DNA of 64,000 nt from Candidatus Versatilivorator sp. (GTDB lineage Bacteria; Acidobacteriota; Terriglobia; Versatilivoradales; Versatilivoraceae), in contig OZ242296.1 in NCBI GenBank assembly GCA_965207735.1, positions 1,309,808 to 1,373,807 of the forward strand, in the 5' to 3' direction. The notes beneath the pieces were generated by a model. It did no database searches. It saw only the letters and a program-made list of their open reading frames with translations, and was not told the DNA's origin. Position 1 is the stretch's first letter, and each line of letters starts with the position of its first letter. Below are positions 888 to 40,980 of this stretch, in pieces. The position numbers and the translations under genes were made by a program.

Positions 888-980
888 CAGGTGTTCGCCT
901 CCCTTTCATCCTTACTTTGTCGATCCATCCGGGAATTTCCTCCGGTCCCGCCCGGAAACACCACAGTAGGTGCAACCACC

Positions 981-1964
981 CTAATTCCATGAGTCCATTT
1001 CCGCCATCCATTCAGGGGGAAAGTCCATCTCCATGGCTCGCAGGGCACTATCCAGATGGCCGGTGTTGCGGGCTCCGATCAGCACGGAGTCGACCCCTTC
1101 CCGGTTGAGAACCCACCTCATGGCCAATTGAACCATGGATACCCCGGTCCGCGCCGCTTTCCGCCGAAGTTGCTCGACGACTCGAAAGCTGCGTGGGTGG
1201 AAATAGACGTCGACGTGGCCGGGAATCACGTCGAAGCGGGTGCCCTTGGGAATCTTGTCTTGATCGGCCGTGTACTTTCCGGCCAGGAATCCCGCCCCCA
1301 GCGGACTGTAGGTCACCACTCCGACCTGCTGCCGTCGACACAGGGACAGCAGTTCCGTCTCTATCTCGCGATGGGCCAGATTATAGATGGGTTGAATGAC
1401 TCCGAGGCGGGGCAGACCTTTCAGGCGACTCAGCCCGAGAGCTTCCGACAGTTGCTCGGCAGAGAAGTTGCTGCATCCGCTGCAACGAATCCTGCCGGCC
1501 CTTTTCCCTCGATCCAGCGCCGCCAACCCTTCTTCCAGCGGAACGTTGGGATCATACGAGTGAAACAGATAAAGATCAACGTAATCGGTCTGGAGACGAC
1601 GCAGGCTGTCTTCCAAAGCCTGCTGCACTTCCTGTTGGCTCTTGTTGGCCGACACCTTGGTTTGAAGGGTGACCCGGGAACGTGCGCCTCGGGATTTCAG
1701 CCAACGGCCCAGGATTTTCTCCGAGGAGTGCATTTCACCGCTCACCTCGCGCACATCTTCGATTCCCATTCGATCGCGCCGATGCTGGCGGGCCTGCCCG
1801 CCGCCGTAAGCCTCGGCTGTATCGAAAAGGGTGATGCCTCTTTCCAAGGCAGCGTCCATGATCTGAAACGAGGTGGCCTCGTCAATTTCCCTGCCGAAGG
1901 TGGCGCAGCCCAGGCCGAGACGGCTGACCGTGATGCCGCTGTTACCTAATGGCTTCGTTTCCAT
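981..1964 (-). CDS. aldo/keto reductase family oxidoreductase
   Basis: METKPLGNSGITVSRLGLGCATFG N-terminus, AKR motifs (YVDLYLFH, IGARNTGHLDSAL). GAGGAG RBS 6 nt upstream of the ATG at 1964. The longer ORF to 1988 translates the RBS. Confidence 0.85.
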   Translation of the reverse strand: METKPLGNSGITVSRLGLGCATFGREIDEATSFQIMDAALERGITLFDTAEAYGGGQARQHRRDRMGIEDVREVSGEMHSSEKILGRWLKSRGARSRVTLQTKVSANKSQQEVQQALEDSLRRLQTDYVDLYLFHSYDPNVPLEEGLAALDRGKRAGRIRCSGCSNFSAEQLSEALGLSRLKGLPRLGVIQPIYNLAHREIETELLSLCRRQQVGVVTYSPLGAGFLAGKYTADQDKIPKGTRFDVIPGHVDVYFHPRSFRVVEQLRRKAARTGVSMVQLAMRWVLNREGVDSVLIGARNTGHLDSALRAMEMDFPPEWMAEMDSWN

Positions 1965-2038
1965 TGAATTCTCTCCTCGCTTCAACAAAAAATCGAATCC
2001 GGTCCGGTGTCTACTAACGACGCTGGACGCAACTTACG

Positions 2039-2590
2039 TCAATTCCTGGCTTCGGCCATATATTCATCCCTGAGAATCCCCATGAGGATCAGGTCGTGCC
2101 ACTGGCCCCGGGAATAGTGCCAGTCCCGCAGCGCTCCCTCTTCCTTGAACCCACACTTTCGGTAGCAGCGATAACCCCGCTTGTTGGGTCGAATCACTCT
2201 CAGGCCGACCCGGTGCAGGTTCAACTCCTCGAAGCAGACTTTCAGGAATAGCCGCAGGGATTCCTCGCCCAGGCCCTTGGAGAGCGAAGTGACGTCTCCA
2301 ATCACTATCCCCACCTCGGTATTCTGTCGCCGCAAATCCAGATACTCATAGCCGATATGCCCTAGATACTTGTGGTCTTCCCGCCGGCAGATAGCAAATT
2401 TTCGATTGGCGGGATCCACGTTATTGACCTGCGCCTCGACGAAGGCCCGAGCCTGCTCCAGAGATTCGGGCCAGACGTAGGAGCCCGTCCACCATACGAT
2501 CTCATCCAGGGTGCGCCACTGGTAAAGAGTCTCTACATCGCTCAACAGGTATTCCCTGAGATACACTCTGTCTCCTAGAATGTGTGGCAT
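2039..2590 (-). CDS. GNAT family N-acetyltransferase (RimJ/RimL-like)
   Basis: 183 aa. GNAT core (HIGYEYLDLRRQ..GIVIGD..GKGLGEESLRLFLKVCFEELNLHRVGL). GGGAGGAGG RBS before the ATG. Confidence 0.8.
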   Translation of the reverse strand: MPHILGDRVYLREYLLSDVETLYQWRTLDEIVWWTGSYVWPESLEQARAFVEAQVNNVDPANRKFAICRREDHKYLGHIGYEYLDLRRQNTEVGIVIGDVTSLSKGLGEESLRLFLKVCFEELNLHRVGLRVIRPNKRGYRCYRKCGFKEEGALRDWHYSRGQWHDLILMGILRDEYMAEARN

Positions 2591-2646
2591 GATCCTCCTC
2601 CCTTCTCGGTTGAATTCGCTATCCGAAACAGACTGAAACCCACGGG

Positions 2647-3480
2647 CTACAAGAGCCGCGCGAACAACTCGCGGGCCTGATCGGCGTTGGCCGGAGGCCG
2701 TTCCTGCTGAAGCGAGCGGGTCGCCGCCAACCCTACCAGTTCCGCATTGCCGGCGGCCCGGGTGCCGTCGGGTCTGTAGAGATTGTTCTCGAATCCGATC
2801 CGGGCGTGTCCTCCTCGAGCCAGGGCGCGGTCCACGCAGGCCAATTCATGCTTCCCGAAAGCGCACAGGAACCATGCCTCTCGAAAGGAGCTGACTTCCA
2901 GCAACGGATCCAGATCGGAGGGTGCCGATTGCTGATTGGGGGTATAGCGCCCCAGCACAAAGAGGACACAGGGATCGGAATGCGGAACGATACCACGATG
3001 AACGAGCCCCGTCAGGTATCTGACCTGATCCGCATTGAACACGATGAACTGGCCAAAAATCCCTTCCGCCCGCAGCCAGTCCAGGAATTCCGCCGCCTGA
3101 GCTTCATAGGTCGGGTCGGGGAGAATTTCCCCGATGGAAAGACTCACCGCCTCCGGCCTGAGCTCCCGGACCAGGCGCATTTGCTCCTCCGGACCGTAAA
3201 GGCCGCAGGATTCGGTGGTGACCTGAATCACCAGCCTGTCTCCCACCTGGGAGCGAACGGCCTGGATGGCGGCCCGGTAGGCCGACACGTCCAGAACGTG
3301 GCCCAGATCCCGGTCCCGGACGTGGAGATGAATCATGGCGGCTCCCGCCTCCAGGCTCTCGGCGGCAGCTCGCCCCAATTCAGCAGGTGTCGTGGGTAGG
3401 TTGGGATGGTCCCGGCGGGTCTTGCGAGCCCCGTTTGGGGCGACGCAAAGGATGGCGGGACGCGAGTTCTTTGCTTGCAT
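2647..3480 (-). CDS. 3-keto-5-aminohexanoate cleavage enzyme family (BKACE / DUF849) beta-keto acid cleavage enzyme
   Basis: 277 aa. ILCVAPNGARKT N-terminus and HLHVRD motif are typical of the Kce/BKACE TIM-barrel family. Confidence 0.75.
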   Translation of the reverse strand: MQAKNSRPAILCVAPNGARKTRRDHPNLPTTPAELGRAAAESLEAGAAMIHLHVRDRDLGHVLDVSAYRAAIQAVRSQVGDRLVIQVTTESCGLYGPEEQMRLVRELRPEAVSLSIGEILPDPTYEAQAAEFLDWLRAEGIFGQFIVFNADQVRYLTGLVHRGIVPHSDPCVLFVLGRYTPNQQSAPSDLDPLLEVSSFREAWFLCAFGKHELACVDRALARGGHARIGFENNLYRPDGTRAAGNAELVGLAATRSLQQERPPANADQARELFARLL

Positions 3481-3658
3481 CTCTCGTGCCTGGGCGTACT
3501 ACCCTGGTAAGTACTGTCCGAACCATATTGAGAGAATTATTCATGATGTCTTGGATTTGTAGGACCAGGAATCGCTTTTGGGCACGTTCCGACACTTCCT
3601 CTAGCAGGCCTTCCTCATCGAGAAAATCATCAAAGTTGGTGCCGCTATGCCTATTCAT
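3380..3658 (-). pseudogene. HigA-type addiction-module antidote remnant (N-terminal FDDFLDEEGLLEEV motif only); 3' portion degenerate and overlapping the kce start
   Basis: MNRHSGTNFDDFLDEEGLLEEVSERAQKRF resembles the N-terminus of the TIGR02684-type antidote family. The C-terminal half has no HTH-like sequence and overlaps the next gene by 101 nt out of frame. No cognate toxin upstream. Confidence 0.3.
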
Positions 3659-3966
3659 GCACTAGCTTCTCTCGGAAAGGAACCCGCTGCCCGGTAAATG
3701 GGAAACAGCTCAACCACAAAAAGCACAAAAGGCACAAAACAGGGATCCAGTCTTGCCCAATCTCTTTATTGTGCCTCTTGTGGCCGTTCGACGGAGAGCC
3801 GTGTTCTGTGAACCCGGTTGCCTCCATGAGATTTGAGACCTGCCGATTCCGACTATTGTGCCTTTTGTGGACATTCAGGCACAGAGCCGACCTGCCCCTC
3901 GCATTCCCTTTCCCCTCTCCCGACCCCTAAAACCGTCGCCTACAGAATATTGCAAAAGGCTCAATC

Positions 3967-5571
3967 TCAATACGGGGAATTCCGGCGCAGCACCCGGCCG
4001 CCGCGATCTCCCGTCAAGCGACCGTCCCTGACGGTCTGAACGCCGTTCACAAACACGTGAGTCATGCCGACGGCGGTTCGGTTGGGCTCGTAGGTGGTGC
4101 CCCGTTCGCTGAAGGTCCGCGGATCGAAAATTGCCAGATCCGCGCAAGCCCCCTTCCGGATGACGCCTCTGTCCTTCAAGCCGAGGCGGCCGGCGGGAAG
4201 CGAGGTCAAGCGGCGTATCGCCTCTTCGGGGCGGAGCTTTCCCGTATCGCGCACAAAGTGCCGGTAGAACCAGGAGGCCCAGGTGTAGGCCCCGTGGAAG
4301 GACCGGTCCCTCAGAGGTCCGTCGGTGGCCAGGGCGGTGGCGTCCGACCCCACCATGCAGTGGGGATGCTCGAAGGCCAGTTCGTTTTCTTCCAGTCTGT
4401 AGGTCAGGGCCATCACCATCAGTCGGTGGATATCATCGACTTCCGCCAGCAACAGATCATAGACGGCGTCGAGAGGCTCGACGCCCATCTGCCGGCCGAT
4501 CTCGCCGATACTCTTCCCGGAAAACTCCGGGTAGGCCTGGGACTCGAAAATGACGATTCGTTCCCAGTCGTCCTGGACCAGCGAGCGAAGATGACTCCTG
4601 TAGGTCTTGAGGTCCCGGCGCACGCCGGAATCCTTCAAACGGGCGGCAACGGCTTTCGGGCCTCCTTCCAAGGCCCAGGGCGGCAAGGCCGTTCTCAGAT
4701 TGGTGGTTCCAAACAAGCGGGTGTGCATATCGAATCCCACATCCTGGCCCTGTTGGCGGGCTTCATCCACCATGCCCAGGGCCTGCCGGTAAGCCTTGCG
4801 CCCATCGGCGGTCAACCTGGCCACCACCTGAATGTGGGAGATTTGCACCGGCGCGCCCGAGGCCCGGCCTGTGCGAATGGCTTCCGCGATGGTCTCCACC
4901 GCCTCGCCGGCCCGATTCCGAGTGTGGGTCGAATAAAATCCCCCGGCGTCGGCCACCAATCGGCACAGCTCGATGATTTCCTCCTCGGGACAGGCTTTCT
5001 CGGGACCGTACTCCAATCCCGTGGAAAGCCCGAAGGCGCCTTCTTCCAGGCACTGGGACAGCAACCGCTTCATGCGACTCAGTTCCGCCGGACTGGAAGG
5101 CTTGCTGACGTCCTGAACCGCCGCCAGTCGCAGCAGACCGTTCGGCACCAGCGTCAGCACGTTGACTGACGGCCGACCTGTTTCCAGGCGTTCCAGGTAC
5201 CCGGCCATGGTGCGCCAACCGATCTCGTCGGCGGCCTGACAGCCATAGATGTTGGAACGGGCTCGTTCCGGATCCACGATGGGGGCGCAGCCGTGGCCAC
5301 AGTTGCCGACCACTTCCAGGGTGACTCCCTGCATGACTGAGCTCATGGCCCTGGGATCGACGATCAGAGTGAAGTCGGAATGGCTGTGTATATCGATGAT
5401 TCCCGGACACACCCACAGCCCGGAGACGTTCAACTCGGTAGCGCCTTCAGCTTCGCCGATCGATCCCACCTCTGAAATCCGCCCATCCCTGACCGCCATA
5501 TCGGCCTGAAAAGGGGGGCTCCCTGTCCCGTCCACAACCTCTCCCCCTCGCAGGATCAGATCGAAACTCAT
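3967..5571 (-). CDS. N-acyl-D-amino-acid deacylase (D-aminoacylase), amidohydrolase family 3
   Basis: Start MSFDLILRGGEVVDGTG. Metal-binding HSHSD motif. The ATG at 5571 overlaps the upstream gene's TGA (ATGA). The longer ORF to 5757 reads through the upstream gene's 3' end. Confidence 0.85.
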   Translation of the reverse strand: MSFDLILRGGEVVDGTGSPPFQADMAVRDGRISEVGSIGEAEGATELNVSGLWVCPGIIDIHSHSDFTLIVDPRAMSSVMQGVTLEVVGNCGHGCAPIVDPERARSNIYGCQAADEIGWRTMAGYLERLETGRPSVNVLTLVPNGLLRLAAVQDVSKPSSPAELSRMKRLLSQCLEEGAFGLSTGLEYGPEKACPEEEIIELCRLVADAGGFYSTHTRNRAGEAVETIAEAIRTGRASGAPVQISHIQVVARLTADGRKAYRQALGMVDEARQQGQDVGFDMHTRLFGTTNLRTALPPWALEGGPKAVAARLKDSGVRRDLKTYRSHLRSLVQDDWERIVIFESQAYPEFSGKSIGEIGRQMGVEPLDAVYDLLLAEVDDIHRLMVMALTYRLEENELAFEHPHCMVGSDATALATDGPLRDRSFHGAYTWASWFYRHFVRDTGKLRPEEAIRRLTSLPAGRLGLKDRGVIRKGACADLAIFDPRTFSERGTTYEPNRTAVGMTHVFVNGVQTVRDGRLTGDRGGRVLRRNSPY

Positions 5572-7328
5572 TCCGAAGAATTCTCCCTCGACCGAATTCT
5601 CAACTGCTGCCGCAGCTCGTCCGTAGCTTCCGGGTCCACCTGGCCGGCACTGTCCAGGACGACGCCATAGTCCTGCCGAGCCCTTTCTCGAGAGACCTTG
5701 TCGTTCCTGACATCCCGAGCGACTGCCGCCGGATCCCTGGTGAGGGGGTCTCCCCATCCTCCACCGCCCGCCAATCGATGATAGACCGAGTCTCCGGTCC
5801 TGATCGAGGTCGAAATCATGGTGGGCAGAATTTCAACCCCGTCGGCCCCGGCCCGCTCACTCAGTGAGGGTGCGCCCGGCTCCCCGCCACTCAGTCCATA
5901 GGGCCGATGATCGCGTCGATCGGAGCGGATGGACAGGGTGGACTCACCGGCCAGAAGGCGCCACTTCCTTTCGATGGCCAAGCCACCTCGAAACCGGCCC
6001 GCTCCCCCGCTGTCGCGCACCAGTCCATAGCGCTCGATGCACAGCGGATACTCGCTTTCGGCCTGCTCCACCGGTATGTTGCCGGCAACGTTGGATGGAT
6101 TGCACAGTCCGTCGTTCCCATCCCTGTCGGGCCGTCCACCCCAGGTTCCGGTGACCAGCTCGTAAAACACGTAGGGCTTTCCCTCGGGTCTCTTGCCCCC
6201 AAAAATCAGCAGAGAATTGCCGCCTTCTCCGGCCGCGAACACGCGGTCGGGCAGCAATCCGGCCAGGGCTCCCCGTACCGTGTCCGAAAGACGGAACCCC
6301 GTAACCCCTCGCATCGAGGATGCGGCAGGCATGCAGGCGTTGGCCACCGTGCCTTCCGGGGCGATGACCTTGAATGGCTTGAACATGCCGGCAGTGTTGG
6401 GAATGTCCGCTTGAATGACCGATCGCAGGCAGACGGCGACCACCGAGGTGGTAAACGAGAGCGTACAGTTGATGCCACCGGGCACTTGGGGAGCGGTCCC
6501 GGAAAAATCGGCGGTCAAGGTGTCGCCGCTGACGGTTAGGGTCACCTGCAGCCGGACCGGAGGACCTCCAACTCCATCGCTATCCATGTAGTCGGTAAAA
6601 CTGGAGGATCCGTCCGGCCAGGAGGCGATCTCTGAGCGAACCAGGCGCTCCGTATAGGCCAGAAGGTCTCGACAGCACCCCTGGAATGTCTCCAGGCCGT
6701 ATCGCTCGATGAGCTTCAGGACGGAATTTACTCCGATATGGGTAGCAGACAGTTGAGCTCTCAGATCTCCCAGCGTCATTTCAGGAATCCGGACGTTGGA
6801 GGCAAGCAATGCAAAGATGGATTCGTCCGGCCGGCCTCGCCGGTACAGCTTGAGCCAGGGGATTCGCAGTCCCTCCTGGAAGATCTCCGTATTGTCGCAA
6901 GCGGCGCTTCCAGGCAAACGACCTCCCAGGTCTGCGTGATGAGCGGTGCTGACGGCAAACGCGACCCGGCGATCCTTCCAGAAGACAGGGCGGACTACAA
7001 AGATGTCGGGGATGTGCATGCCGCCATCGAAGGGGTCGTTGAGAATGAACACATCCCCGGGATCGATTTCATGTCCGTATTTTTTCAAGAGGGTCCGCAT
7101 GGCAAACGGGACCGAGGCGATGTGATGCGGGAGTGTGACGCCCTGGGCGATCATCTGCCCCTCGGCGTCGCACAGGGAGGTGGAAAAGTCCAGGCAATCC
7201 CGCACAATGGTGGAATAGGCCGTGCGGTACAGGCTGAGCGCCATCTGGTCGGCTGCCGACGCCAGGCCATGTTGCACGATGGCCAAGGTGATCGGATCGG
7301 TTCTTTGTGCCGCCTCACCCGTGTTCAT
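5568..7328 (-). CDS. hyuB: hydantoinase B / 5-oxoprolinase subunit (HyuB family)
   Basis: 586 aa with hydantoinase_B hallmark regions. 4-nt ATGA overlap with hyuA. Confidence 0.9.
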   Translation of the reverse strand: MNTGEAAQRTDPITLAIVQHGLASAADQMALSLYRTAYSTIVRDCLDFSTSLCDAEGQMIAQGVTLPHHIASVPFAMRTLLKKYGHEIDPGDVFILNDPFDGGMHIPDIFVVRPVFWKDRRVAFAVSTAHHADLGGRLPGSAACDNTEIFQEGLRIPWLKLYRRGRPDESIFALLASNVRIPEMTLGDLRAQLSATHIGVNSVLKLIERYGLETFQGCCRDLLAYTERLVRSEIASWPDGSSSFTDYMDSDGVGGPPVRLQVTLTVSGDTLTADFSGTAPQVPGGINCTLSFTTSVVAVCLRSVIQADIPNTAGMFKPFKVIAPEGTVANACMPAASSMRGVTGFRLSDTVRGALAGLLPDRVFAAGEGGNSLLIFGGKRPEGKPYVFYELVTGTWGGRPDRDGNDGLCNPSNVAGNIPVEQAESEYPLCIERYGLVRDSGGAGRFRGGLAIERKWRLLAGESTLSIRSDRRDHRPYGLSGGEPGAPSLSERAGADGVEILPTMISTSIRTGDSVYHRLAGGGGWGDPLTRDPAAVARDVRNDKVSRERARQDYGVVLDSAGQVDPEATDELRQQLRIRSRENSSE

Positions 7329-12293: not shown

Positions 12294-14618
12294 ATGACAA
12301 GTCGACGCGGAATCTTGGTTCTGCTTTCTCTCGTCGCCGTGTCTTTCAATCACTCGACACTGGCACAGTCGCCGGAGACCGGTCCGGCGCTGGGTGTCGC
12401 CAGGCTCAGCCTGGTCAAGGGCGACGTCACCGTGCAGCGAGGCGAATCGGGAGATTCGATTCAGGCCACGGTCAACCTGCCGCTGGTGGAAGCCGATATT
12501 CTGACCACCGGACCGGCTTCCCGCGCCGAACTCCAGCTGGACTCTTCCAATTTTCTGCGCCTCAACGAATACTCCGCGGTTCGACTGGCCAATCTCGCCC
12601 ATCGAACCTTCCGGGTTCAACTGGAGCGCGGGACCCTCACTTACAGTGAATTGAGGGGCGGAGACGCGGACATCGACATCGAAACCCCGCTGGCGGCGGT
12701 TCGTCCGGAAAAGAACGGCCGCTACCGGGTCGAAGTCGTCGGTCTTGACCGGGTGACTGTCACCGTGCGCAAAGGACGGGCCGAGGTGGCCTTGGCAAAT
12801 GGGACGGAAACACTCAAAGCCGGTCAACGCATGATGGTCCACAAGGGACACCAGAACATCGAATTCCAGGTGGCCAAGGCCGATCCCGCGGACGACTGGG
12901 ACCTCTGGAACGTGCGCCGGGACCGGCAACTCAGGAAGTCCAAGGCCTACAGCTACGTGAACCCCAGCATCTACGGCGCGGAGGATCTGGATGATCACGG
13001 CCGTTGGGTCTACGTTCCCAGCTATGGCCGCTGCTGGTTTCCCTCGGTAACGGTGGGCTGGGCTCCCTATCGCTACGGGCGCTGGTCATGGTTGGACTAC
13101 TATGGCTGGACCTGGGTCAGTCACGACCCCTGGGGCTGGGCTCCCTACCACTACGGGCGCTGGTTCCGCCACGCCCGTTTCGGTTGGGGCTGGTATCCCG
13201 GCTCCTATTACTCCCGTCACCATTGGCGACCGGCCCTGGTGGCCTTTTTCGGGTACGGCGGCCGCGGCGGGCCAGGGATCGGCCTGGGTTCGAGGTTCGG
13301 ACATTACGGCTGGATTCCACTGGCGCCTGGCGAGCCCTACTATCCCTGGTATGGCCGTCGTGTTCACCGCCGCGCGAGGCCGGGCAGGGGCGGCTCGACC
13401 GTCCTGGTCGACAACCGGATCAATATCTACAACAACTATCGCAATGCCCGCCATCGCAACGGCACCACCCTGGTCGCCGCCAGGGCATTCTCCCGAGGAC
13501 AGATTCTGAATGCGCGCGCCCTGCAGGCCTCCGAGGTAAGACGGGCCAGCCTGGTGCGCGGCCGGATTCCGGTCGTACCCGATCGCACCAGCCAGGGACG
13601 ACTTGTTCAGAGAGCCCGCCGCTCGGCTCAAGGTGCCGGCTCCACCGCTCAAACCCGCTTCTTTTCGACCGGACGCGCACGGCGCAACATCGCCCGTCGT
13701 TCTTTCGTCCAGCAGCGCCAGGAGATGGCCCGATTCGTCGATTCCCTGGGTCGAAGCGACGTCCAGGCCGGCCGGCCGGCCAATCCCCGCTCTTCCGCCA
13801 GGCCCGAAGCGGGTCGTTCGGCGCCAGGTTTACGGCCACCGGGGACGACTACCAGCAGGTCCACGGTAGGATCCACCAACCGGCGCAGCCTGCCGTCACG
13901 GTCAAATCCGGCGGCGGTCCGCGGTCGGAGTAACGTCGATCGAAACCCCACAGGCGCCGTGAATTCTCCACGTCCAACGGCTGCCCGTCCGGATGGCGGG
14001 AACCGGCCGGACTCGCTCGAGCGCTGGCGGCGCTTAAACCGCCGCACTGCCACCCAAGGTACGATCCCGCGCGGGACACCCTCCAGAAGCTCGACTCCGC
14101 GCGCGGCTGAATCGGTGTCCGAATCTTCCCCTTCGGTGCCGTCGGTCCCTCCAGTGCGACCCTCTCCGCGCTTCGCGCCCAGAAGTTCCTCTCGAGTCGA
14201 CAGCGTCCGCGGGCAGAGCTCTCCCAGCAACAGCCGGCCGTCCCGCTCGGTCTCCAGGCCCTCCAGCCGAAGCTCTTCGCGGGTCTCGACGCCGTCACGG
14301 CCTTCGCCGCCACGGTCCACCTCGAGGGTTCGCAGCTCTTCCAGCCGCAGCCGTCCGTCACCTTCGGTCTCCAGGCCCTCCAGCCGGAGTTCCTCACGGG
14401 TCTCGACCCCGTCACGGCCTTCACCGCCCCGGTCCACCTCGAGGGTCCGGAGCGCCCCCAGCCGCAGCCGTCCGTCGCCTTCGGTTTCCAGGCCCTCCAG
14501 CCGGAGTTCCTCGCGAGCCTCTACCCCCAGTCGCTCGAAGTCAAGCTCCTCCATCCAACGTAGTAAATCGCGGAGTTCGAGCAAGAGCCAGTCGCGAAGC
14601 CGATCTCAAAGGCGTTAG
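12294..14618 (+). CDS. FecR-domain protein with Trp/Gly/Tyr-rich GRW-repeat region and a ~330-aa Arg/Ser/Pro-rich low-complexity C-terminal tail
   Basis: GGGAGG RBS 9 nt before the ATG at 12294. Signal-peptide-like MTSRRGILVLLSLVAVSF. FecR-type segment (GDVTVQRG...ADILTTGPASRAELQL). WGWAPYHYGRW-type repeats. C-terminus is built from 120-bp tandem DNA repeats. Confidence 0.8.
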   Translation: MTSRRGILVLLSLVAVSFNHSTLAQSPETGPALGVARLSLVKGDVTVQRGESGDSIQATVNLPLVEADILTTGPASRAELQLDSSNFLRLNEYSAVRLANLAHRTFRVQLERGTLTYSELRGGDADIDIETPLAAVRPEKNGRYRVEVVGLDRVTVTVRKGRAEVALANGTETLKAGQRMMVHKGHQNIEFQVAKADPADDWDLWNVRRDRQLRKSKAYSYVNPSIYGAEDLDDHGRWVYVPSYGRCWFPSVTVGWAPYRYGRWSWLDYYGWTWVSHDPWGWAPYHYGRWFRHARFGWGWYPGSYYSRHHWRPALVAFFGYGGRGGPGIGLGSRFGHYGWIPLAPGEPYYPWYGRRVHRRARPGRGGSTVLVDNRINIYNNYRNARHRNGTTLVAARAFSRGQILNARALQASEVRRASLVRGRIPVVPDRTSQGRLVQRARRSAQGAGSTAQTRFFSTGRARRNIARRSFVQQRQEMARFVDSLGRSDVQAGRPANPRSSARPEAGRSAPGLRPPGTTTSRSTVGSTNRRSLPSRSNPAAVRGRSNVDRNPTGAVNSPRPTAARPDGGNRPDSLERWRRLNRRTATQGTIPRGTPSRSSTPRAAESVSESSPSVPSVPPVRPSPRFAPRSSSRVDSVRGQSSPSNSRPSRSVSRPSSRSSSRVSTPSRPSPPRSTSRVRSSSSRSRPSPSVSRPSSRSSSRVSTPSRPSPPRSTSRVRSAPSRSRPSPSVSRPSSRSSSRASTPSRSKSSSSIQRSKSRSSSKSQSRSRSQRR
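14215..14585 (+). repeat. in-frame tandem repeat, ~120-bp period x ~3, encoding an SR/SP-rich 40-aa unit
   Basis: cagccgcagccgtccgtc(a/g)ccttcggt(c/t)tccaggccctccagccggagttcctc... recurs at ~14231, 14351 and 14471. Confidence 0.8.
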
Positions 14619-14650
14619 CGCCAATGGCTTCCGATACCCCGTAACAGAAC

Positions 14651-14684
14651 CAGCCCCCGTTTGTCACCGGGGGCTGTTCTCTGG
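14651..14684 (+). terminator. candidate intrinsic terminator after the FecR-like gene
   Basis: Perfect 9-bp stem cagcccccg / cgggggctg with loop tttgtcac, followed by ttctct. Confidence 0.45.
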
Positions 14685-14717
14685 AAAAAGATTCAGGGAT
14701 GGCGCGGAATTCTCTCT

Positions 14718-15105
14718 TGCCTGAAACAAACGCCTGCGCCTGGTGGCTGGAAACCGGTTCATAGTCAAGCATGGGTAGATTTTTGATTCACATCGATGCA
14801 CAGGATGCACAGGATTATTGGGCGAGAGATTCCACCGTCATGAGTTCAACCATCGCCTCTGTTCCAACACGGATTTCCCAAAACCCGTTCCCGGGCTCTT
14901 GGATCACTTCCAACACCCACCCGATCATTGAGCGGGTCTGCTTCCTGTGGCACAGCCTCTCGTGCTGTTTATCCTGTCTATCCTGTGTATCCATGTTCAA
15001 TAAGTAGAAAACCGGTTTAGCACGACTTGGCCCTTGTTCCCGACAGGCCATGAAGATTCGTTGTTTCACTCTCGTATGATCCGCACGGTAGGGCGGGGGC
15101 CTGGC
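14718..15105 (+). mobile_element. MITE-like non-autonomous element, full copy A
   Basis: Left arm cttgcctgaaacaa...ggaaaccggttcatagtcaagcatgggtag...catcgatgcacaggatgcacaggat. Right arm atcctgtctatcctgtgtatccatgttcaa...gaaaaccggttt...gttgtttcactctcgtatgatccgcacggtagggcgggggcc. Arms are mutually inverted (ATGGAT-nnACAGGAT-nnACAGGAT). ~80-85% identical at the ends to copy D. Confidence 0.55.
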
Positions 15106-15232
15106 GCATGAAGGGTCTCGGGAGTTCCGGCAGGAAAGTCTTGTCTCCACGCACCGATGCGTTTAATCTTCAAACCGGTTTGCATTCGACGGGTCAGGCT
15201 TTCACGGTCCCAACCAGGAAAAGGAGCGACTG

Positions 15233-16933
15233 GTGCCATTCGAGCTTTCAGCTCAACATCTGGCGGCAGTCAACCGTCGCCGCAGAGTGGTGGTCAACCG
15301 GGATGCCATACACGGAGACCCCACCTTCACTGACCCGGACATCCGGGATCTGGTCGATTACAAGTTTGACTTCATTGACCACTTCCCGACTCATATCGAC
15401 AGCCTGTGGTGGAATTGGGGGGAGGGCCACCAGGCCCCCTACCCCAGCAAGATCCTGCCCCACTACGCCCAGACCTACGACCATCCCGGCTACCAACGAT
15501 GGTTGGACGAGGGCATCGATCCCGTCCGGATCTTCTTGGAAGAAACGCACAAACGAAAGCTGGAAGCCTTTTTTGCCTATCGCATCAACGGCGGCGACAA
15601 CGACCTTCACTTGCTGCCCACCCGCCAGCTCTCGCTGAAGGAATCCCACCCCGACTGGCTGATCCATTTGCCCTGGAGAGATTCGGGGATGTGGAATTTT
15701 GCCGTTCAGGGCGTCAGGGACTACAAGTTGAGCATCCTGAGGGAGGTGGCTGAAAACTACGACTTCGACGGCATTGATATCGACTTCGCCCGCGCCCCTC
15801 CGGTGCTGCCTCCCGGCAGGCAGTGGCAGTTGCGCCACCACCTCACGGAGTTCATGCGCGCGCTCCGTTCCATGCTCCTGGAGTTCGAACGCAAGCGCAA
15901 CCGTCCTTTCCTTTTGTCGGCCAGGGTTCCGGAAACGGTTGAGGGCGCCCACTTCGACGGCCTGGACGTGGAAACCTGGGCCCGGGAGCAGATTGTGGAT
16001 CTATTCGCCCTGGGAGTGCGTTCCTTCGAGGTCGACATTCAGGGCTACCGGTCCTTCACCCGGCACCGCAACATCAAGCTCTATCCCAGCCTGGACGACT
16101 GGCACAGCAGCGACGGCTATCAATGGCCGCCCATCGAAGTCTTTCGCGCGATCTTCGCCAACTGGTGGAGGCAAGGAGCTGACGGCATCCACACCTTCAA
16201 CTTCTCTTACGGTCGCCCCGAGCCGGCAGCCCGAATCGGAGTTCCCTTTCCCGACCCCGTGGTCCACGTCTGGAGATCAGCTCAGTGGAGCGACACACCG
16301 GTCTGGGAAAGCCACCTGCAGGCCTACCGCGAAATGGGTATTCCGGCAACGCTGAGAGACCGGGACAAGACCTTCGTGATACAGCGTCGGGGTGGGGGCG
16401 GACACCCCTCTCTGGAGCCGGACAAATGGCATACTCCCCGATATTTTTATGCCAACTCCAACATGATGGCCCAACTCCCGGCCGCTTTGGCCAATGACGG
16501 CAAAGCCGATACCCTGCTTCGATTGGAGGTGGCGGACGACTTGGGCCGGAATCCCGACCGGCTCGAAGACCTCAATCTGCGGATTTTGTTGTCGGACCCG
16601 GCCGCCCAGTCCCTGCCCAACACCCAAAAACTGGAGCGCACCTTCGTCAAGCGATTCATGCAGGCCAGGATCCGGGCGCGCAAGGCCCAGCCTCCCGACA
16701 GTTACTACAACCTGCCTCCCCGAAAGGGGATCGACCGGCAGATCGAGGTGAGACTGAACGGGGCGTTACTGGCTCAACCCGCAATTGAAGAGGGATGGCT
16801 GACGTTTCGGCCGCGGGGAACGCAGTTGGTTGCCGGCGCCAACCTGTTGGGGATTCGGCGCACCCGCCCGGTAGCCGATACCCAACCCCGGATGCAGGTG
16901 GAAAAGGTCGAACTGAAGGTGCGCTACCGATAG
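15233..16933 (+). CDS. glycoside hydrolase-like family 10 (GHL10/DUF187-type TIM barrel) protein, cytoplasmic
   Basis: 566 aa. YDFDGIDIDFARAPP motif typical of PF02638-like proteins. AAGGAG RBS 6 nt before the GTG start. Confidence 0.55.
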   Translation: MPFELSAQHLAAVNRRRRVVVNRDAIHGDPTFTDPDIRDLVDYKFDFIDHFPTHIDSLWWNWGEGHQAPYPSKILPHYAQTYDHPGYQRWLDEGIDPVRIFLEETHKRKLEAFFAYRINGGDNDLHLLPTRQLSLKESHPDWLIHLPWRDSGMWNFAVQGVRDYKLSILREVAENYDFDGIDIDFARAPPVLPPGRQWQLRHHLTEFMRALRSMLLEFERKRNRPFLLSARVPETVEGAHFDGLDVETWAREQIVDLFALGVRSFEVDIQGYRSFTRHRNIKLYPSLDDWHSSDGYQWPPIEVFRAIFANWWRQGADGIHTFNFSYGRPEPAARIGVPFPDPVVHVWRSAQWSDTPVWESHLQAYREMGIPATLRDRDKTFVIQRRGGGGHPSLEPDKWHTPRYFYANSNMMAQLPAALANDGKADTLLRLEVADDLGRNPDRLEDLNLRILLSDPAAQSLPNTQKLERTFVKRFMQARIRARKAQPPDSYYNLPPRKGIDRQIEVRLNGALLAQPAIEEGWLTFRPRGTQLVAGANLLGIRRTRPVADTQPRMQVEKVELKVRYR

Positions 16934-26134: not shown

Positions 26135-26270
26135 CTCATGTCCTCCCATTTCTGCATTTCAGCCAAGTCCTCCCCGCCGTCCACGATGGGGCGAACCTTT
26201 CGAGGGTGAAACAACAAAAGTTCATTGCCTATTGGGAACAAGTATCCTTTCCGGTGAATCCGGATTCCCG

Positions 26271-26310
26271 GATTATTGAACATGGATGCACAGGATGCAC
26301 AGGATAATCA
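26271..26310 (+). repeat. solo subterminal inverted-repeat fragment (copy B) of the MITE-like family
   Basis: attattgaacatggatgcacaggatgcacaggata. Near-identical, in inverted orientation, to copy C at 32972-33001. Followed by an AT-rich segment. Confidence 0.5.
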
Positions 26311-26589
26311 GGACAGGAGGCCGCTGCGCGACCCGCAATCTCTCAAGTATAAACCATTAATTACAAAAGAGTTTATTTGGATCAGTCTGCTGCGGTTCCC
26401 TCATTATATCCCTTTTATTGAAAAGGAACCCCCTGGACAATCTAGGACGTTGGTGGAAAGGTCAGCCGAGTATCAACCCTGAATCCGAGGCCGTCAAGCG
26501 GGGTGGCAAGCTGCCCGTGTCGCGGATCGTAGCAACTATCCCCGACTTTCGATATTGTATGTTGTCGCTACCTAAATAGCCGTGAGTCC

Positions 26590-26807
26590 GTCGCTTGGCC
26601 GCTTCCCGGGCGTTGGATCTTTAACCCCCACAGCTTCCGCGTCCTGGTCGTGACCGATTTGCTTTCCCAGTGCGTGTCCCTTGAGGACGTGCAGGACCTG
26701 GCCGGACACCTAAGCCCCAGGACAAGCCAGATCTATGATCGCCGGCGACGGCGTGTGACGCGCGAAATCGTGGAGAGGATTTCCGTGTGGGCCTTGATGC
26801 CTTGAAG
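26590..26807 (+). pseudogene. tyrosine recombinase (phage-integrase family) C-terminal remnant
   Basis: Frame gives ...NPHSFRVLVVTDLLSQCVSLEDVQDLAGHLSPRTSQIYDRRRRRVTREIVERISVWALMP*. This is the conserved HxxR...LGH...Y catalytic C-terminus. An in-frame stop lies upstream (TAG at 26530-26532), so only ~70 aa are present. Confidence 0.6.
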
Positions 26808-27134
26808 GGAGGCTCCCAACATGTCATCGTCGTGGGCCCGCGCCGGCAAGGACCCAGCCGCTGCGGACCGCCTGGCTCGTCTGATGGACGAGGAGCTGAC
26901 AAAAGACCGAGACCGTGAGCTGCTGGAGCGATGGCGAGGCACGTAGGGACCGCTACCCCGGGGTGCTACGGGTCGTCAGAACCTGAAAAAACACAGCACA
27001 GGGAAACTGTCGGCTTTTTTTTCAGCCGATCAGGGTCAAACAGAAAATCGCAGGCTGGACCGCCGAGCTCAAGGATTTTGGGGGTGCCTGATGGGAATCA
27101 TGGCAAACTGGATGCCCATAACCAGGAACATAAA

Positions 27135-27505
27135 TCAATACGAGAACCAGTCTGCCATCCAGCCAATTCCCCTTGATCCTTGCAAGTAAACATGCAGCAG
27201 GTAGGCAAGAGAGTAAATGGTGGCAGCAGTTACCACTGTGCGATAAATCTCCTTGGTTGCTACAACTCTATGTCGGCGCCGCGTCTCCAACCATTTGTAC
27301 ACCAAGCCCCCTAATACAGCACTTGTTGACGCCCACAGCCAAGTTTCCAAATACCACGGCGAAGACACAGTAGAGTTTCCAAACCGAAGAGCGCAAAGAG
27401 AACTACAACTGCTGTGGAATGCGGGCTAGTCGCATCCAGGCCCCAAGACATATGTCGCCCGACATGCTGAAATGTCGAACTCTTATGTTTGCTCAGCTTG
27501 TTCAT
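27135..27505 (-). other. degenerate ORF fragments in a low-GC (~48%) segment
   Basis: Two overlapping short ORFs in different frames with hydrophobic stretches. Local GC is well below the window average. No recognisable family. Confidence 0.2.
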
Positions 27506-27779
27506 CGCATTGGCTATCTATCCACACACAGACAAGGCCACAAACTTCCCCGGCGGGGAGGTTAAGAGCGCCAATAGATGTACAGGATATTGCAGCACTA
27601 GGGCGTTTTGACATTCAGCAGAGCCTTTTGCAAAATTCACCGTAGGGCAGGCTTGTTAGCGGTGAGACGTGATGTGCGACGCGTGACTACCTGACAGCAA
27701 GAGCCCTTTTGAAGGTAAATCCCCAGATCTGAAGGCTGGATCGCAGGTTCTTGCAGAGCGCGGGCACAGCTTCCCCTCT

Positions 27780-28960
27780 GACCGCCCTGAGGCGGGTGTT
27801 ATCCGGCCCTGTCGGGAATCTGTGGCGACCCTCTCAAAGCGTCAGGCGCATCAACTGCTCCACCGTCAGCGCCAGAATGCCGAACATCAGGTGGCACATC
27901 ACCTGGTCGGGGCCGCGTACCCTGACGTGGCGTCCGCCAAACTCCTCCTTGAGCCGTCCGTTGACCCGCTCCACGGTCGAGCGTTCCCGGTAGCGCCGCG
28001 CCTCGGGAGACAGGTGGCCGATGCAGCGCTCGGCCAGCGCCTCCCGCTTCCGCTCGGCTTTCAGCTCGGCTCGCCTGCGGGGGTTGACGTCAATGATCGG
28101 CACATGGCCCAGCTTCTGGCTGAAGGCCCGGATCTCAGGAGCATCGTAGGCGCTGTCCATCAAGTCGTAAAGGCTGGTGACCCGCCTGGCGGTCAGCGTC
28201 GCCAGCGGGATGGCCACCTGAGAGTCATGCACCGAGGCCGAGGTCAGCAGGCAGCTGATGGGAATCCCCCCGTCGATGGCGTCGAGATGCAGCTTGTAGC
28301 CGGTCCATCTCTCCAGATACCCCTTCCCGGTGGACTTGACGCCGATGTCGCAGGCCCTGGGCAACTCCTCCAGCATCTCGTCCAACGTCATGGAGGCCTG
28401 CCGCTGCAGACGGCTCAACTCCTTGGGCCGTTGCTCGCCCTTCGGCGGCCGGCCCACCCGGCGCTTCGGCTTTGCCGCCGGGGCCGCCTTTGCCGCCGCC
28501 TTCTCACGCCCCGCAATGGCCGTCGAGTCCCTCGAAACATGGCCCGCCAAGTGGCCCTCCAGCGTCCGCTCCAGCAGCACCTTATACAAACGCCCCGCCA
28601 GGTCGCGGTCAGTAAACTCCCCAAAGGCGCGCGAGAAGGTCGCCTCGCTCGGCACACTCTCTGCCCCCTCCCAGCCGCACAGCCGGCGCAGGGTGCCATC
28701 GGGCCGCAGACGCTCCACCAGCCCCCGGGTGGTGGGCACGTTCAGCACCGCCTTCGCCAGGAAGGCACGCGCCAGCGCCGCCCGATCCTCCACGGCCGGC
28801 CCCGCCAGCCCCTCTGGTAGGGCACCCACTCCTCCACCCGCACCAGTTCCAACACCTGCACCAGCCGCTGGTAGCGGTTCCTCACGTATACCCTTGGGTC
28901 GGTGCCCATGGCCTTCGCCATGAAACGTGCCAGCTGTCACTTGAGCTAGTCAACTACTTC
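27780..28960 (-). mobile_element. IS5/IS1182-superfamily insertion sequence (boundaries approximate; inverted repeats not resolved)
   Basis: Contains a single DDE transposase gene with DUF772-type N-terminus (AALARAFLAKAVLNVPTTRGLVERL...LRRLCGW) and a C-terminal DDE domain (DSAYD...VERVNGRLKEEFG). Confidence 0.7.
27834..28921 (-). CDS. IS5/IS1182-family DDE transposase, apparently frameshifted near 28795
   Basis: N-terminus MAKAMGTDPRVYVRNRYQRLVQVLELVRVEEWVPYQRGWRGRP starts at the ATG at 28921 in one frame. The body from ...AVEDRAALARAFLAKAV onward is in another frame. The shift is inside a G/C run (ggggccggcc). Confidence 0.7.
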
Positions 28961-28965
28961 TTCTC

Positions 28966-29235
28966 CTACTTCTTCTCCACAACCTCTTCCAAAAAAAACT
29001 CCGTCCTGATCCTGTCGTCAAAATCCACCACGTTCCCCTCCTGACTAAAGACTCCTGGCCTGGGACCACCCGGTCCAATGGAAAACTTGGCTCCGGCTGT
29101 CCCTACGTACTTGTATTCACCGTCTTCTTTCAAGAAGACCTTGAAATTCACTTCAAACGTCCGCGTCTGCGGTGGTGCATCCCCCGCAGCAAATGCGAGC
29201 GCGGCCAGCAGCAAGACTACCGTTAGTATTCTCAT
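28966..29235 (-). CDS. small secreted protein of unknown function
   Basis: GGAAGG RBS then ATG. Signal peptide MRILTVVLLLAALAFAAG. ~70-aa mature protein. Immediately downstream of the ankyrin gene. Confidence 0.5.
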   Translation of the reverse strand: MRILTVVLLLAALAFAAGDAPPQTRTFEVNFKVFLKEDGEYKYVGTAGAKFSIGPGGPRPGVFSQEGNVVDFDDRIRTEFFLEEVVEKK

Positions 29236-29344
29236 TGTTCCTTCCAATAATAAAGGTTACAAGCAACACCAAAACCGAATGTACAGAGCCTCCAATTGGT
29301 CACAAACTATCTCTGCAGTAGCTCCCGGTCAGAGCATACGGCCG

Positions 29345-31567: not shown

Positions 31568-31986
31568 GTTTCTTACCCTCCGTCGCGGGTCGCACGTCTT
31601 TGAACCATTGGGGCCGAAGAACCCCACATTTTCCCGGTGCGATACGACTTAACGATCCGGCAAGAATACCGTGCAGAGTGCTAACGTGTGTTCCTGACTG
31701 TAAGAATCTATCGTTGAAAATCAGTATAGCAGCAGTCTTCACCAAGGGAGAAAGGCAACACACAATGAGGCTGGCAATCCGTCCAGTCCAGTTTGCTCTG
31801 CTTGTGCCCGGGATGCCAGCTCAGCAAGGAGGCACGTCTGCTACCGCGACCGCCAGAGGTGTCCGGGAGAAACGGAAGGCGTCTTTTCGAACCGGTCACC
31901 TTATACAGCGTCCACTTGAAGTTAGAGATGAGCCGGCTTACTATGGGAGTTAATCGCAACTTCAATAAGGCGGATATAGCGTAGGC

Positions 31987-32589: not shown

Positions 32590-32949
32590 GAACCCCGTGT
32601 GTCAACACCCGTCTCCACACCGCATATCCGAGGCCACAGTCGCAATTCTTTCCCGGATGACCGTCACAACCCTCGTTTGAGCTTCTCGGCCTTGCGCCGA
32701 ACCATCCGCCGGGCGGAATTGCCGGCATTCGGCTTGTCCTGCCTATGTTGCTCAAGCCGTGGGGTCACCGTCTCGGGAGTCTCGCCGCTGCACGGCGCAT
32801 CGCCCGCTGCGGCCCAGTCCCGCTCGCTCTGGGAGTGGTGTCCCGGCGGCATCCCGCGACGGCACCTATATCGACCTGCAGCTTTTGTGTTGTTGCTGCA
32901 CGAGAGGCTGACTCCGGTGATGATCGGGTGCGGATTTGCGGATGTCCGG

Positions 32950-33075
32950 GACTGCCAGCCAGCCGTCTCCGGAAAATATCCTGTGCATCCTGTGCATCCA
33001 TGTGAATCAATAATCTACTCATGCTTGACCTTGAACCGGTTTCCAGCCACCAGGCTCAGGGGGGTGTTTCAGGTA
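32950..33075 (-). repeat. partial MITE-family copy C (left arm only), inverted relative to copy B
   Basis: Reverse complement reads ggtggctggaaaccggttcaaggtcaagcatgagtagattattgattcacatggatgcacaggatgcacaggat. This matches the copy A left arm over ~75 nt. Confidence 0.5.
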
Positions 33076-36794: not shown

Positions 36795-36805
36795 ACGCTG
36801 CTCCA

Positions 36806-37190
36806 TTGCCTGAAACAGCTCCCGTCATCGGGCGTCGGGAACCCGGTTCAATGTCAAGCATGGGTAGATGGTTTATTAACATGGATGGACAGGATATACA
36901 GGATTTTTGGCGAGAGTTACCACCTTCTTGAGTTCAACCATCGCCCATGCTTCAAAGAGGATTCCAAGACCCGCCCCCGGCTCAGGGAACACCTCGAAGC
37001 CTCACCCGATCATTGAGCACAACCGCTTTTTGTGCCGTAGCGTCTCGTCCCGTTAATCCTGTCTATCCTGTGTATCCATGTTCAAAATGTAGAAAACCGG
37101 TTTAGCGGAACGTGGCACTTATTCCCGATAGGCCCGAAAGGCCGTTGTATCACTCTCGAGTGATCCGCACGGCAGGACGGCGGCGACTGA
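36806..37190 (+). mobile_element. MITE-like non-autonomous element, full copy D
   Basis: attgcctgaaacag...aacccggttcaatgtcaagcatgggtag...aacatggatggacaggatatacaggat ... atcctgtctatcctgtgtatccatgttcaaaatgtagaaaaccggttt ... cactctcgagtgatccgcacggcaggacggcgg. Same architecture as copy A. Confidence 0.55.
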
Positions 37191-37247
37191 ACAGCGGCGC
37201 TCGACCAAGCCAATGATCCCTGTTCTCCACATCTTCTGAGGAACTCC

Positions 37248-40875: not shown

Positions 40876-40907
40876 CATCCCGGCTTCGAGCATCAGTAGC
40901 GGCCTGA

Positions 40908-40937
40908 TTAACATGGATGGACAGGATATACAGGATC
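40908..40937 (+). repeat. solo copy E of the MITE subterminal repeat
   Basis: attaacatggatggacaggatatacaggat. Identical over 30 nt to the copy D left arm. Interior side faces right. Confidence 0.45.
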
Positions 40938-40980
40938 TCCGGTTGATGATCCGCCCCTTGGCGGATAACTCTTTTCGTCC

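Follow-up and report, generated by a model that had tools for sequence, protein, structure and literature searches.

The stretch of DNA analysed here, which we call the window, is a 64,000-nt segment of Candidatus Versatilivorator sp. (contig OZ242296.1, positions 1,309,808 to 1,373,807), a genus of the class Terriglobia in the Acidobacteriota; other genome stretches compared with it carry L-numbers (L008, L119 and so on). Between its genes lie copies of a small inverted-repeat element of about 385 bp, which an initial annotation had described as resembling miniature inverted-repeat transposable elements (MITEs). We describe the repeats, or arms, that bound these elements, the remnants of a GxxExxY nuclease gene found within them, and the intact cassettes of other genomes in which arms of the same design enclose that gene.

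The arm has the 24-nt layout ATGGAT-NN-ACAGGAT-NN-ACAGGAT. A search with this pattern (ATGGATNNACAGGATNNACAGGAT, allowing up to three mismatches) gives eight matches in the window against 0.01 expected from dinucleotide shuffles, none of 100 shuffles reaching eight; the direct 9-mers noted in the initial annotation are therefore real, and the solitary arms that it listed lie within about 25 nt of where it had placed them. All but one of the eight match exactly; the exception, the left arm of copy 1, has ATCGAT in place of ATGGAT. The pattern search locates them at 14792 (+), 14994 (-), 26282 (+), 33001 (-), 36881 (+), 37079 (-), 40913 (+) and 60178 (-). All are found between credible genes, in agreement with the annotation, and the neighbouring genes are ordinary chromosomal ones. 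Two convergent pairs, each about 155 nt apart, mark two full copies, composed as follows.

14718..15105: copy 1, the whole element of about 385 bp; aligned in full with copy 2, L008 and L015.
14792..14815 (+): copy-1 arm lying 3' of the relic gene, ATCGATGCACAGGATGCACAGGAT; with the type-A flank (14718-14791) before it.
14815..14994 (-): copy-1 relic GxxExxY open reading frame (ORF), MDTQDRQDKQHERLCHRKQTRSMIGWVLEVIQEPGNGFWE...AMVELM...*; recognised by profile hidden Markov model (HMM) and BLASTP.
14971..14994 (-): copy-1 arm holding the ATG of the relic gene; the type-B flank (14995-15069) lies outward of it.
15060..15101 (+): left half of module H in copy 1, GTTGTTTCAC..TATGATCCGCACGGTAGGGCGGGGGCC; the right half, CTGAAACAAA, is at 14721-14730.
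36806..37190: copy 2, the whole element of about 385 bp; the segment specific to the window against its relative L119 is 36800-37196.
36881..36904 (+): copy-2 arm; pattern search.
36881..37079 (-): copy-2 relic ORF, MDTQDRQD*RDETLRHKKRLCSMIG*GFEVFPEPGAGLGILFEAWAMVELKK..., with two in-frame stops.
37056..37079 (-): copy-2 arm with the ATG; pattern search.

As the initial annotation had proposed, the two copies share one architecture: they align over their full length, with a mean column identity of 80% when two copies from related genomes (L008, L015) are added, and the boundaries given for copy 2 agree within a few bases with the window-specific segment. A small non-coding inverted-repeat unit is thus present in multiple dispersed copies: the window has eight arms, including two full pairs, and at least 118 carrier stretches are found elsewhere. 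The two 24-nt arms of copy 1 pair with two mismatches and two G-T pairs, and a computed fold also pairs them. Just upstream of copy 1, at 14217-14567, a 786-aa FecR/DUF6600 gene contains three 117-bp tandem repeats (86% and 62% identity to the reference copy), in frame, with 39 codons per unit. An Rfam scan of the whole window at gathering thresholds matched tRNA-Cys alone and revealed no rRNA; at E values up to 1, regions 14600-15300 and 58300-60400 had no match.

The ORFs that run out of these arms had been dismissed as translations of a repeat, not genes. No intact gene is indeed present, but the ORFs are relic 5' ends of a real gene family. The copy-1 relic retains the N-terminal 40 residues or so and a 'VELK'-like piece of a GxxExxY protein, its catalytic core being deleted. 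It is matched at 14818-15162 (-) by a custom HMM built from six locus proteins (E 2e-5), and BLASTP aligns it to the intact L107 protein with 58% identity over 40 residues (E 6e-13). Copies 1 and 2 both lack the core D...E-x-K / Q..Y and are pseudogenes, copy 2 having also acquired in-frame stops. One internal deletion is common to copy 1, copy 2, L008 and L015, the latter two from other genomes. Its presence at separate sites indicates that the unit was copied after the gene had been destroyed, as expected for a non-autonomous element.

A second relic, with arms of another family, is found further along the window.

59612..59797 (+): second relic, arms CCACAAAAGGCACGAAAAGAC / TTGTGCTTTTTGTGG, CACAAAA-unit arm family.

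Its stretch 59649-59783 corresponds to the C-terminal third of a GxxExxY gene (TLKACKALTPERVAQV...LEIKKFVL) and matches profile positions 83-126 with an E value of 1e-6 (match span 59397-59795, +). A third arm family, made of GCACAAAAN 9-mers, occurs at 3713-3783 (as a hairpin), 3856-3870, 50298-50416 and 59766-59875. A repeat of 95-110 nt occurs both just after tRNA-Cys (50196-50271), at 50298-50416, and near 59.8 kb, where it comprises the 3' end of this second relic plus its arm.

In other genomes, arms are associated with intact GxxExxY genes. An intact cassette measures about 0.45-0.5 kb and holds one gene, for a GxxExxY protein of about 125 aa, between terminal inverted-repeat arms; the start codon lies inside one arm (MDxQDxQD), and another arm supplies the stop codon of many copies (..KHG*). 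Among loci found by the arm alone, in at least 118 stretches, convergent arms enclose GxxExxY genes in L103, L107, L018 and L091, the first codons of the 136-aa ORF of L018 being supplied by the arm, and the GxxExxY genes of L054 and L089 adjoin arms. The arm-enclosed proteins match TIGR04256 (E 1e-42) and Pfam PDDEXK_3 (E 7e-43). They represent a minimal form of PD-(D/E)XK nuclease whose fold resembles that of Cas4 and RecB. Residues D76, E86, K88 and Q100..Y104 are invariant in GxxExxY proteins, and an AlphaFold model (predicted local distance difference test score, pLDDT, 88) leaves the arm-encoded residues 1-8 and 134-137 disordered. GxxExxY matched neither the PADLOC defence models nor, in a sequence search, any entry of the PDB. 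The partner of the ACAGGAT arms is therefore this nuclease gene, where the initial annotation had anticipated a transposase: between arms 180-1200 nt apart we found no ORF other than GxxExxY, and a wider screen for arms of any kind with a 9- or 10-nt period added one PF05635 gene. No rRNA was seen beside the GxxExxY genes of 40 loci.

The association was also tested in the converse direction, starting from 80 metagenome loci picked from protein sequence alone. Exact 6-mers repeated at a 9-nt period occur in 85 of 136 GxxExxY flanks (period 10, 38 flanks; other periods, 7-14), compared with 5 of 68 gene interiors. An inverted repeat between the upstream and downstream sides, with at least 18 of 24 positions matching, surrounds 67 of 73 GxxExxY genes, against 1-2 of 73 in shuffled or gene-interior controls; the 73 genes tested comprise 68 from the protein-selected loci and five intact cassettes from other look-ups. 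Arm families differ among loci (ACAGGAT, AGGGGAT, CGCAGAT, CACAGAC, CACGAAT, CACGGAT), and as they correlate only partly with protein clades they do not prove co-evolution. About half of the best 120 homologues of an arm-less query begin with MDxQDxQD and finish in ..(D/N)(F/Y)KHG, the stop codon after KHG falling in the second arm in L125 and L054; other homologues read on into NMDxQDxQD or NPVHPVHPC, which are arm translations. Cassettes come in two layouts: the gene between two convergent arms, or the gene between two arms of like orientation followed by a loop and a convergent arm, the latter often with further hairpin units behind it.

The GxxExxY family is large, with 28,295 clusters at 50% identity (E up to 0.001). 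Many representatives are about 260 aa long with two full domains (for example P0241, P0242 and P0250), a length that suggests tandem cassettes fused or read through. GxxExxY cassettes with ACAGGAT arms also separate hsdR from hsdM in type I restriction-modification operons (L211-L216, L222-L231); these are two sets of metagenome contigs, many of which stop exactly at the hairpin repeats. The Pfam family PDDEXK_3 has been described as of 'function unknown', with multiple transfers between divisions (PMC3424549). A literature search on the arm sequence, its peptides, GxxExxY/PDDEXK_3, and PDDEXK combined with inverted repeats and mobility returned no description of the cassettes or of their arms.

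The arm itself is widespread. In a scan of one genome per species, the exact 24-mer is present in at least 118 stretches, embedded in unrelated flanks across phyla: carriers among the matches listed include Latescibacterota, Dehalococcoidia, Acidobacteriota, Opitutales, Gammaproteobacteria, Planctomycetota, Nitrospirota, Hydrogenedentota and others. Groundwater, lake and soil sources are represented, and many of the arm-carrying metagenome-assembled genomes (MAGs) are, as we take it from their record names, assemblies of sponge symbionts. Plasmid carriage amounted to only 8 of 72,556 records. In 161 arm instances listed from many phyla, information is confined to ACATGGAT-RN-ACAGGAT-NN-ACAGGAT and is zero on both sides, so that the arm consists of three tandem 9-bp units: ACATGGAT, NN-ACAGGAT and NN-ACAGGAT. 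The NN spacers vary, and those of partner arms match only slightly more often than composition would predict; the 7-mers themselves are therefore the conserved element. About half of the listed arms have a convergent partner 6-341 nt away, and among the matches listed convergent partners (78) far outnumber divergent ones (10). Gene-less arms are far more numerous than GxxExxY genes. In two gammaproteobacterial MAGs (L083 and L034), a solo arm occupies a short spacer between the same two genes, one ending in ..AWLK* and the other a biotin-carboxylase-like gene starting with MFNKILIANRGEIA, while the surrounding spacer differs; this may be either an old insertion kept in both or a recurrent target.

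Outside the arms, the window elements have two different conserved flanks. The type-A flank contains ..TGAAACAA..ggaaaccggttca.agtcaagcatgggtagat.. and is present at 14792, 33001, 36881 and partly at 40913; the type-B flank contains a GC hairpin followed by GTGAAACAAC..cgggaacaag..aaaccggtttt.. and is present at 14994, 37079, 60178 and partly at 26282. The right side of the element had been seen as the inverted image of the left: this applies to the arms, which are convergent, but not to the outer flanks, which differ and are not mirror images. Likewise, the annotated aaaccggtt and TGAAACAAC/GTTGTTTCA boxes are present, but the end box is degenerate in copy 2 (CTGAAACAGC, GTTGTATCA). What the initial annotation took for a right and a left terminus are two halves of a single module, H, composed of TGTTTCACYCTCG.ATGATCC, a variable GC hairpin and GGGGC..GGCTTGCCTGAAACAAC. 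The TGAAACAAC 'termini' belong to this hairpin module, which was seen only in Terriglobia loci, including Ca. Versatilivorator, and is no part of the arm conserved across phyla. The copied unit in this acidobacterial lineage has gained outer flanks of about 70-110 nt, with an aaaccggttt box, a TGAAACAAC box and a GC hairpin.

Module H is found in the window at 15060-15101, 37144-37185, 58598-59418 and 60244-60285, and also in L011, L027, L032, L045 and L087. Its stem varies in a compensatory manner (CCGCAC-GGCA-GGGCGG, CTGCCC-GAAA-GGGCAG, CCGCCC-GTCGT-GGGGGCGG), and it has no match in Rfam. The module also joins the 182-bp tandem units of an array at 58459-59570, which immediately follows the stop codon of a uracil-DNA glycosylase gene and comprises about six units spaced 170-246 bp apart, the last three 182 bp each. 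All units have the same make-up, with an A-rich stretch, CACGAAG-type repeats at a period of 9-11 nt (CCACGAAGGGGCACGAAGAACGACGAAGGG) and module H; the array looks like another arm family amplified in tandem.

The four remaining window arms are further truncated or split copies.

26172..26321 (+): type-B flank, arm (26282-26305) and the first 12 or so relic codons; apparent left half of a split element.
32880..33073 (-): arm (32978-33001), type-A flank and about 100 nt of core; apparent right half of a split element.
40886..40965 (+): heavily deleted copy with a partial type-A flank, arm (40913-40936) and H-type hairpin GATGATCCGCCCCTTGGCGG.
60155..60285 (-): arm (60155-60178), type-B flank and module H (60244-60285), upstream of a gene resembling that of elongation factor G (EF-G).

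The type-A flank at 32880..33073 is 91% identical to 14720-15 over 96 nt. The arms at 26282 (+) and 33001 (-) are 100% complementary over 27 nt and look like the halves of one element of about 150 bp, split by a 6.6-kb insertion. The intervening segment (26306-32977), which is absent from L120, L121 and L122, carries an IS5-like DDE transposase gene (27834-28940, -) together with a gene for a 760-aa ankyrin-repeat protein (29345-31627, -). Its apparent point of insertion is the core of an arm-bounded element, with a possible duplication of about 9 bp, GCTGCRCGA. The SnoaL_3 and HpcH genes are adjacent in L120 and L121 and separated by one extra gene in L122, with no arm there in any of the three.

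Close relatives differ by gains and losses of units at intergenic sites, and no target-site duplication is left behind. The spacer between the pyrroloquinoline quinone (PQQ)-dehydrogenase and Gate genes, which in the window is 453 bp long and houses copy 2, measures 120 bp in L119 (92% protein identity) and about 200 bp in L120 and L122, all three lacking the element. These relatives also lack, in their orthologous spacers, the arm at 40913. Window positions 1-6746 are syntenic with Ca. Versatilivorator sp. OZ241970 at 87-88% nucleotide identity; where the window has a CACAAAA-type hairpin (3472-3982), the syntenic L087 (87-88%) has ACAGGAT and CACGAAG elements with H modules. Insertion polymorphism between related genomes is therefore seen at three places (copy 2, arm 40913 and the L087 site), the relatives compared for presence or absence being 79-92% identical; the syntenic conservation that would have spoken against mobile DNA is not observed. 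In 75 arm pairs, examined at offsets 0-6 and lengths 2-9, the target-site duplications that the initial annotation had suggested looking for did not appear, matches being as frequent as in permuted flanks.

Units also amplify in tandem and vary in number within populations. L203-L206 encode an identical GxxExxY protein in the same species context, with two or three ATACAGGAT units in the start arm (three in L203, two in L204) and with one, three, four or five copies of an 88-nt hairpin unit downstream, a hypervariable arrangement resembling a variable-number tandem repeat. L232-L234 contain a 213-nt tandem array with the gene in one unit and deletion derivatives in the neighbouring ones.

Taken together, we consider that the window elements are probably relics of a cassette of the kind known from the intervening sequences (IVSs) of bacterial rRNA, here encoding a GxxExxY nuclease. 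By analogy with the IVSs of 23S rRNA, transcribed arms would pair into a stem of about 24 bp, and RNase III could cut this stem, freeing the insert from the host transcript and rendering it harmless. As to spread, the relics would rely on intact copies elsewhere in the genome, and the putative nuclease might act on the arms either through a homing-like break and its repair or by cleavage of a cruciform or hairpin; on both counts our proposal is more tentative than for the stem.

Several observations weigh against this interpretation. At the non-Watson-Crick positions of the arms, G·U (50) is not in excess over A·C (57) on the sense strand, which means that there is no positive sign of RNA-level selection on the arms, and copy 1, folded as single-stranded DNA, surpasses shuffled sequences by a modest margin only (z -1.84). 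The PF05635 cassettes, whose protein is not a nuclease, share the same design: the arms may thus be served by a factor other than the GxxExxY nuclease. In the lineage of the window, the amplified unit extends past the arms, so that a different mechanism could move it. The 64-kb window holds no intact GxxExxY gene; the 59-aa copy-1 relic has no NCBIfam match at E 0.01, and the copy-2 relic is not significant alone (HMM E 7.8), reaching significance only when aligned to copy 1. Nor are the 'empty' orthologous sites clean: in L119 an H-like module is present in opposite orientation. Finally, each of four exact-protein look-ups placed the protein in one genomic context only, and no recent jump of an intact cassette was caught.

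Other explanations share part of this evidence. That the cassettes are not self-mobile is unlikely, but deserves to be set out: the arms would function only at the level of RNA or expression, either as a stem for processing or stability or as a site of autoregulation, copies would arise by duplication, unequal crossing-over and horizontal transfer, and the window copies would be plain pseudogenes. Tandem amplification and variation in unit number fit slippage or unequal crossing-over, identical proteins are always found in one context and target-site duplications are lacking, while the IVS precedent sets the function in RNA (PMC4990558). Against this, eight arms occupy six unlinked intergenic sites within 64 kb, sites that are absent in relatives, and scattered pieces of about 0.4 kb are not produced by ordinary duplication. 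The same deletion derivative, moreover, recurs at two window sites and in other genomes, the exact 24-mer sits in unrelated flanks of many phyla, and gene-less arms greatly exceed genes. The occurrence of inverted doublets in intergenic DNA without target-site duplications also recalls repetitive extragenic palindromic (REP) sequences and their doublets (REPINs), and one might suppose that the elements are spread by a transposase of the REP-associated tyrosine transposase (RAYT, HUH) type, or by an enzyme acting on module H, with the GxxExxY relic as a passenger. In this lineage a GC-rich hairpin closes the amplified unit; its stem varies from copy to copy yet, by eye, remains complementary (CCGCAC/GGGCGG versus CTGCCC/GGGCAG), and the indel relative to L119 covers all 397 bp, module H included. 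We nevertheless find such an origin very unlikely: a single arm is made of three direct 9-mers, with neither palindrome nor GTAG, no HUH gene was seen beside arms, the part conserved across phyla is the arm and not module H, and intact genes in other phyla have arms without H.

The classical MITE proposed in the initial annotation would be a deletion derivative of an insertion sequence (IS), its 9-mers bound by a DDE transposase that moves it in trans by cut-and-paste. The elements are indeed small, non-coding, multi-copy and polymorphic in presence, with internal direct repeats in their inverted arms, and 'MITE-like' remains apt for non-autonomous deletion derivatives of a parent with the same arms. 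This parent carries no transposase of a known IS family, however. The 75 pairs gave no target-site duplication, no locus has a transposase between its arms, the only recognised arm-enclosed family being GxxExxY, and the relic ORF inside the copies is that of a nuclease gene. As the annotation itself had noted, the window contains no transposase with matching ends, its only DDE gene (27834-28940, IS5-like) being devoid of them. We regard a classical MITE as highly improbable, and a DDE-transposase IS was dropped as a candidate on the same grounds, namely the lack of any ORF but GxxExxY between arms 180-1200 nt apart and of arm-like ends on the IS5-like gene. Conserved regulatory DNA or small-RNA genes, such as operator arrays or decoys of CsrA type with GGA motifs (CAGGAUG), are scarcely credible. 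The 7-mers are invariant while their 2-nt spacers vary, the position is intergenic, and ACAGGAUG resembles CsrB repeats. Yet there is no syntenic conservation among relatives 79-92% identical and no fixed position or orientation with respect to neighbouring genes, a relic coding sequence lies inside, Rfam gives no match at E 1, and paired arms would engage the GGA motifs in base pairs. The CsrA decoy (CAGGAUG) and a DnaA box (TTATCCACA-like) were dropped, since arms usually pair and enclose a coding relic. Promoters (sigma-70, extended -10, or TGAAAC..CGT of the extracytoplasmic function type) were rejected because the required positions are poorly conserved and the only consensus match is inside the core. 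Integron attC sites, considered for the AAC...GTT at the arm edges, were set aside as the gene lies inside the inverted pair and the arm sequence is conserved, unlike attC; no systematic integrase search was made.

Beyond the relics of the window, it is possible, and we advance it as a tentative proposal, that GxxExxY genes, a family of more than 28,000 clusters at 50% identity that spans many phyla, make up with the tandem 9-10-bp units of their arms a vast group of minimal, autonomous mobile elements, each about 0.5 kb long, which has hitherto escaped recognition: a Cas4-like nuclease, the only protein, would recognise its own end units and copy the element without target duplication, and rRNA IVSs and gene-less 'MDxQDxQD / ILSILSIH' hairpins would be passengers or relics. 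If true, this would settle the origin and movement of IVSs, open since 1990 (PMC4990558), for which the design shared with the cassette suggests a testable candidate enzyme and cis-site. The abundant PDDEXK_3/GxxExxY family of 'function unknown' (PMC3424549) is now given a genomic context. Thousands of called short ORFs (MDxQDxQD.., ..NPVHPVHPC) in genomes of Acidobacteriota, Chloroflexota, Planctomycetota, Verrucomicrobiota, Latescibacterota and Pseudomonadota are explained as the ends of one kind of cassette, and are better masked or annotated as relics than called as genes. The elements also break assemblies, many carriers being contigs of 1-2 kb, and create hypervariable intergenic tandem arrays.

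Among known systems, bacterial rRNA IVSs match the cassette best in design and are its closest known relatives. The IVS of Coxiella burnetii 23S rRNA is a 428-nt unit regarded as 'selfish', with a small, decaying S23p/PF05635 ORF, a 28-bp terminal inverted-repeat stem that is cut by RNase III, and, immediately before the start codon, two to three GACAGAT heptamers in tandem, variable in number among strains; how IVSs arose and how they move is described as unclear (PMC4990558). Both IVS and cassette measure about 0.4-0.5 kb and have terminal inverted repeats forming a stem of about 24-28 bp around one small ORF. In both, short tandem repeats accompany the start codon (GACAGAT versus ACAGGAT units) in variable number, as L203 and L204 illustrate for the cassette; both show ORF decay by deletion and are sporadic, horizontally transferred and regarded as selfish. 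They differ in location, the window elements lying outside rRNA genes and not within an rRNA helix; in their ORF, which encodes a PD-(D/E)XK nuclease in the cassette and the four-helix bundle S23p in the IVS; and in their units, repeated every 9-10 nt with two to three free positions in the cassette and contiguous in the IVS. Cassettes are, furthermore, dispersed at many sites per genome and in tandem arrays. In L079 (1616-2070), a PF05635 gene (E 2e-26; '23S rRNA intervening sequence protein') lies outside rRNA, beside tRNA-Ser, between inverted arms of three AATTAGG heptamers, with its ATG at the inner edge of an arm. This cassette is located just after the tRNA gene, as is the repeat after tRNA-Cys in the window, and is followed by solo arms of CACAGAG, GCAAAAG and CACGGAT.

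The window elements recall MITEs in being small, non-coding and multi-copy, in sharing their ends with a gene-bearing parent, and in their amplification after internal deletion and insertion polymorphism; they depart from them in lacking a target-site duplication and in having a parent that encodes neither a DDE nor any other known transposase. Like the REPIN-RAYT system, the cassette combines a small gene flanked by its own inverted repeats with gene-less intergenic doublets and no target-site duplication, but its enzyme is a PD-(D/E)XK nuclease instead of an HUH Y1 protein, its arm is a series of tandem direct units instead of a GTAG palindrome, and the GxxExxY gene is present in many copies and widely transferred (28,295 clusters). 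Homing endonuclease genes, whether free-standing or borne by introns and including those of the PD-(D/E)XK type such as I-Ssp6803I, are tiny selfish nuclease genes of patchy distribution that insert without duplication into one conserved allele. The cassette resembles them in size, selfish character, patchiness and absence of duplication, and is unlike them in occupying many unrelated intergenic sites and carrying its own repeated ends. The bacterial interspersed mosaic elements (BIMEs) of enterobacteria, finally, are mosaics of REP and other motifs. The window elements too are intergenic mosaics of a few modules (arms, flanks A and B, module H) put together differently at each site; unlike those of BIMEs, their modules derive from a coding cassette, and several arm families (ACAGGAT, CACAAAA, CACGAAG) coexist.

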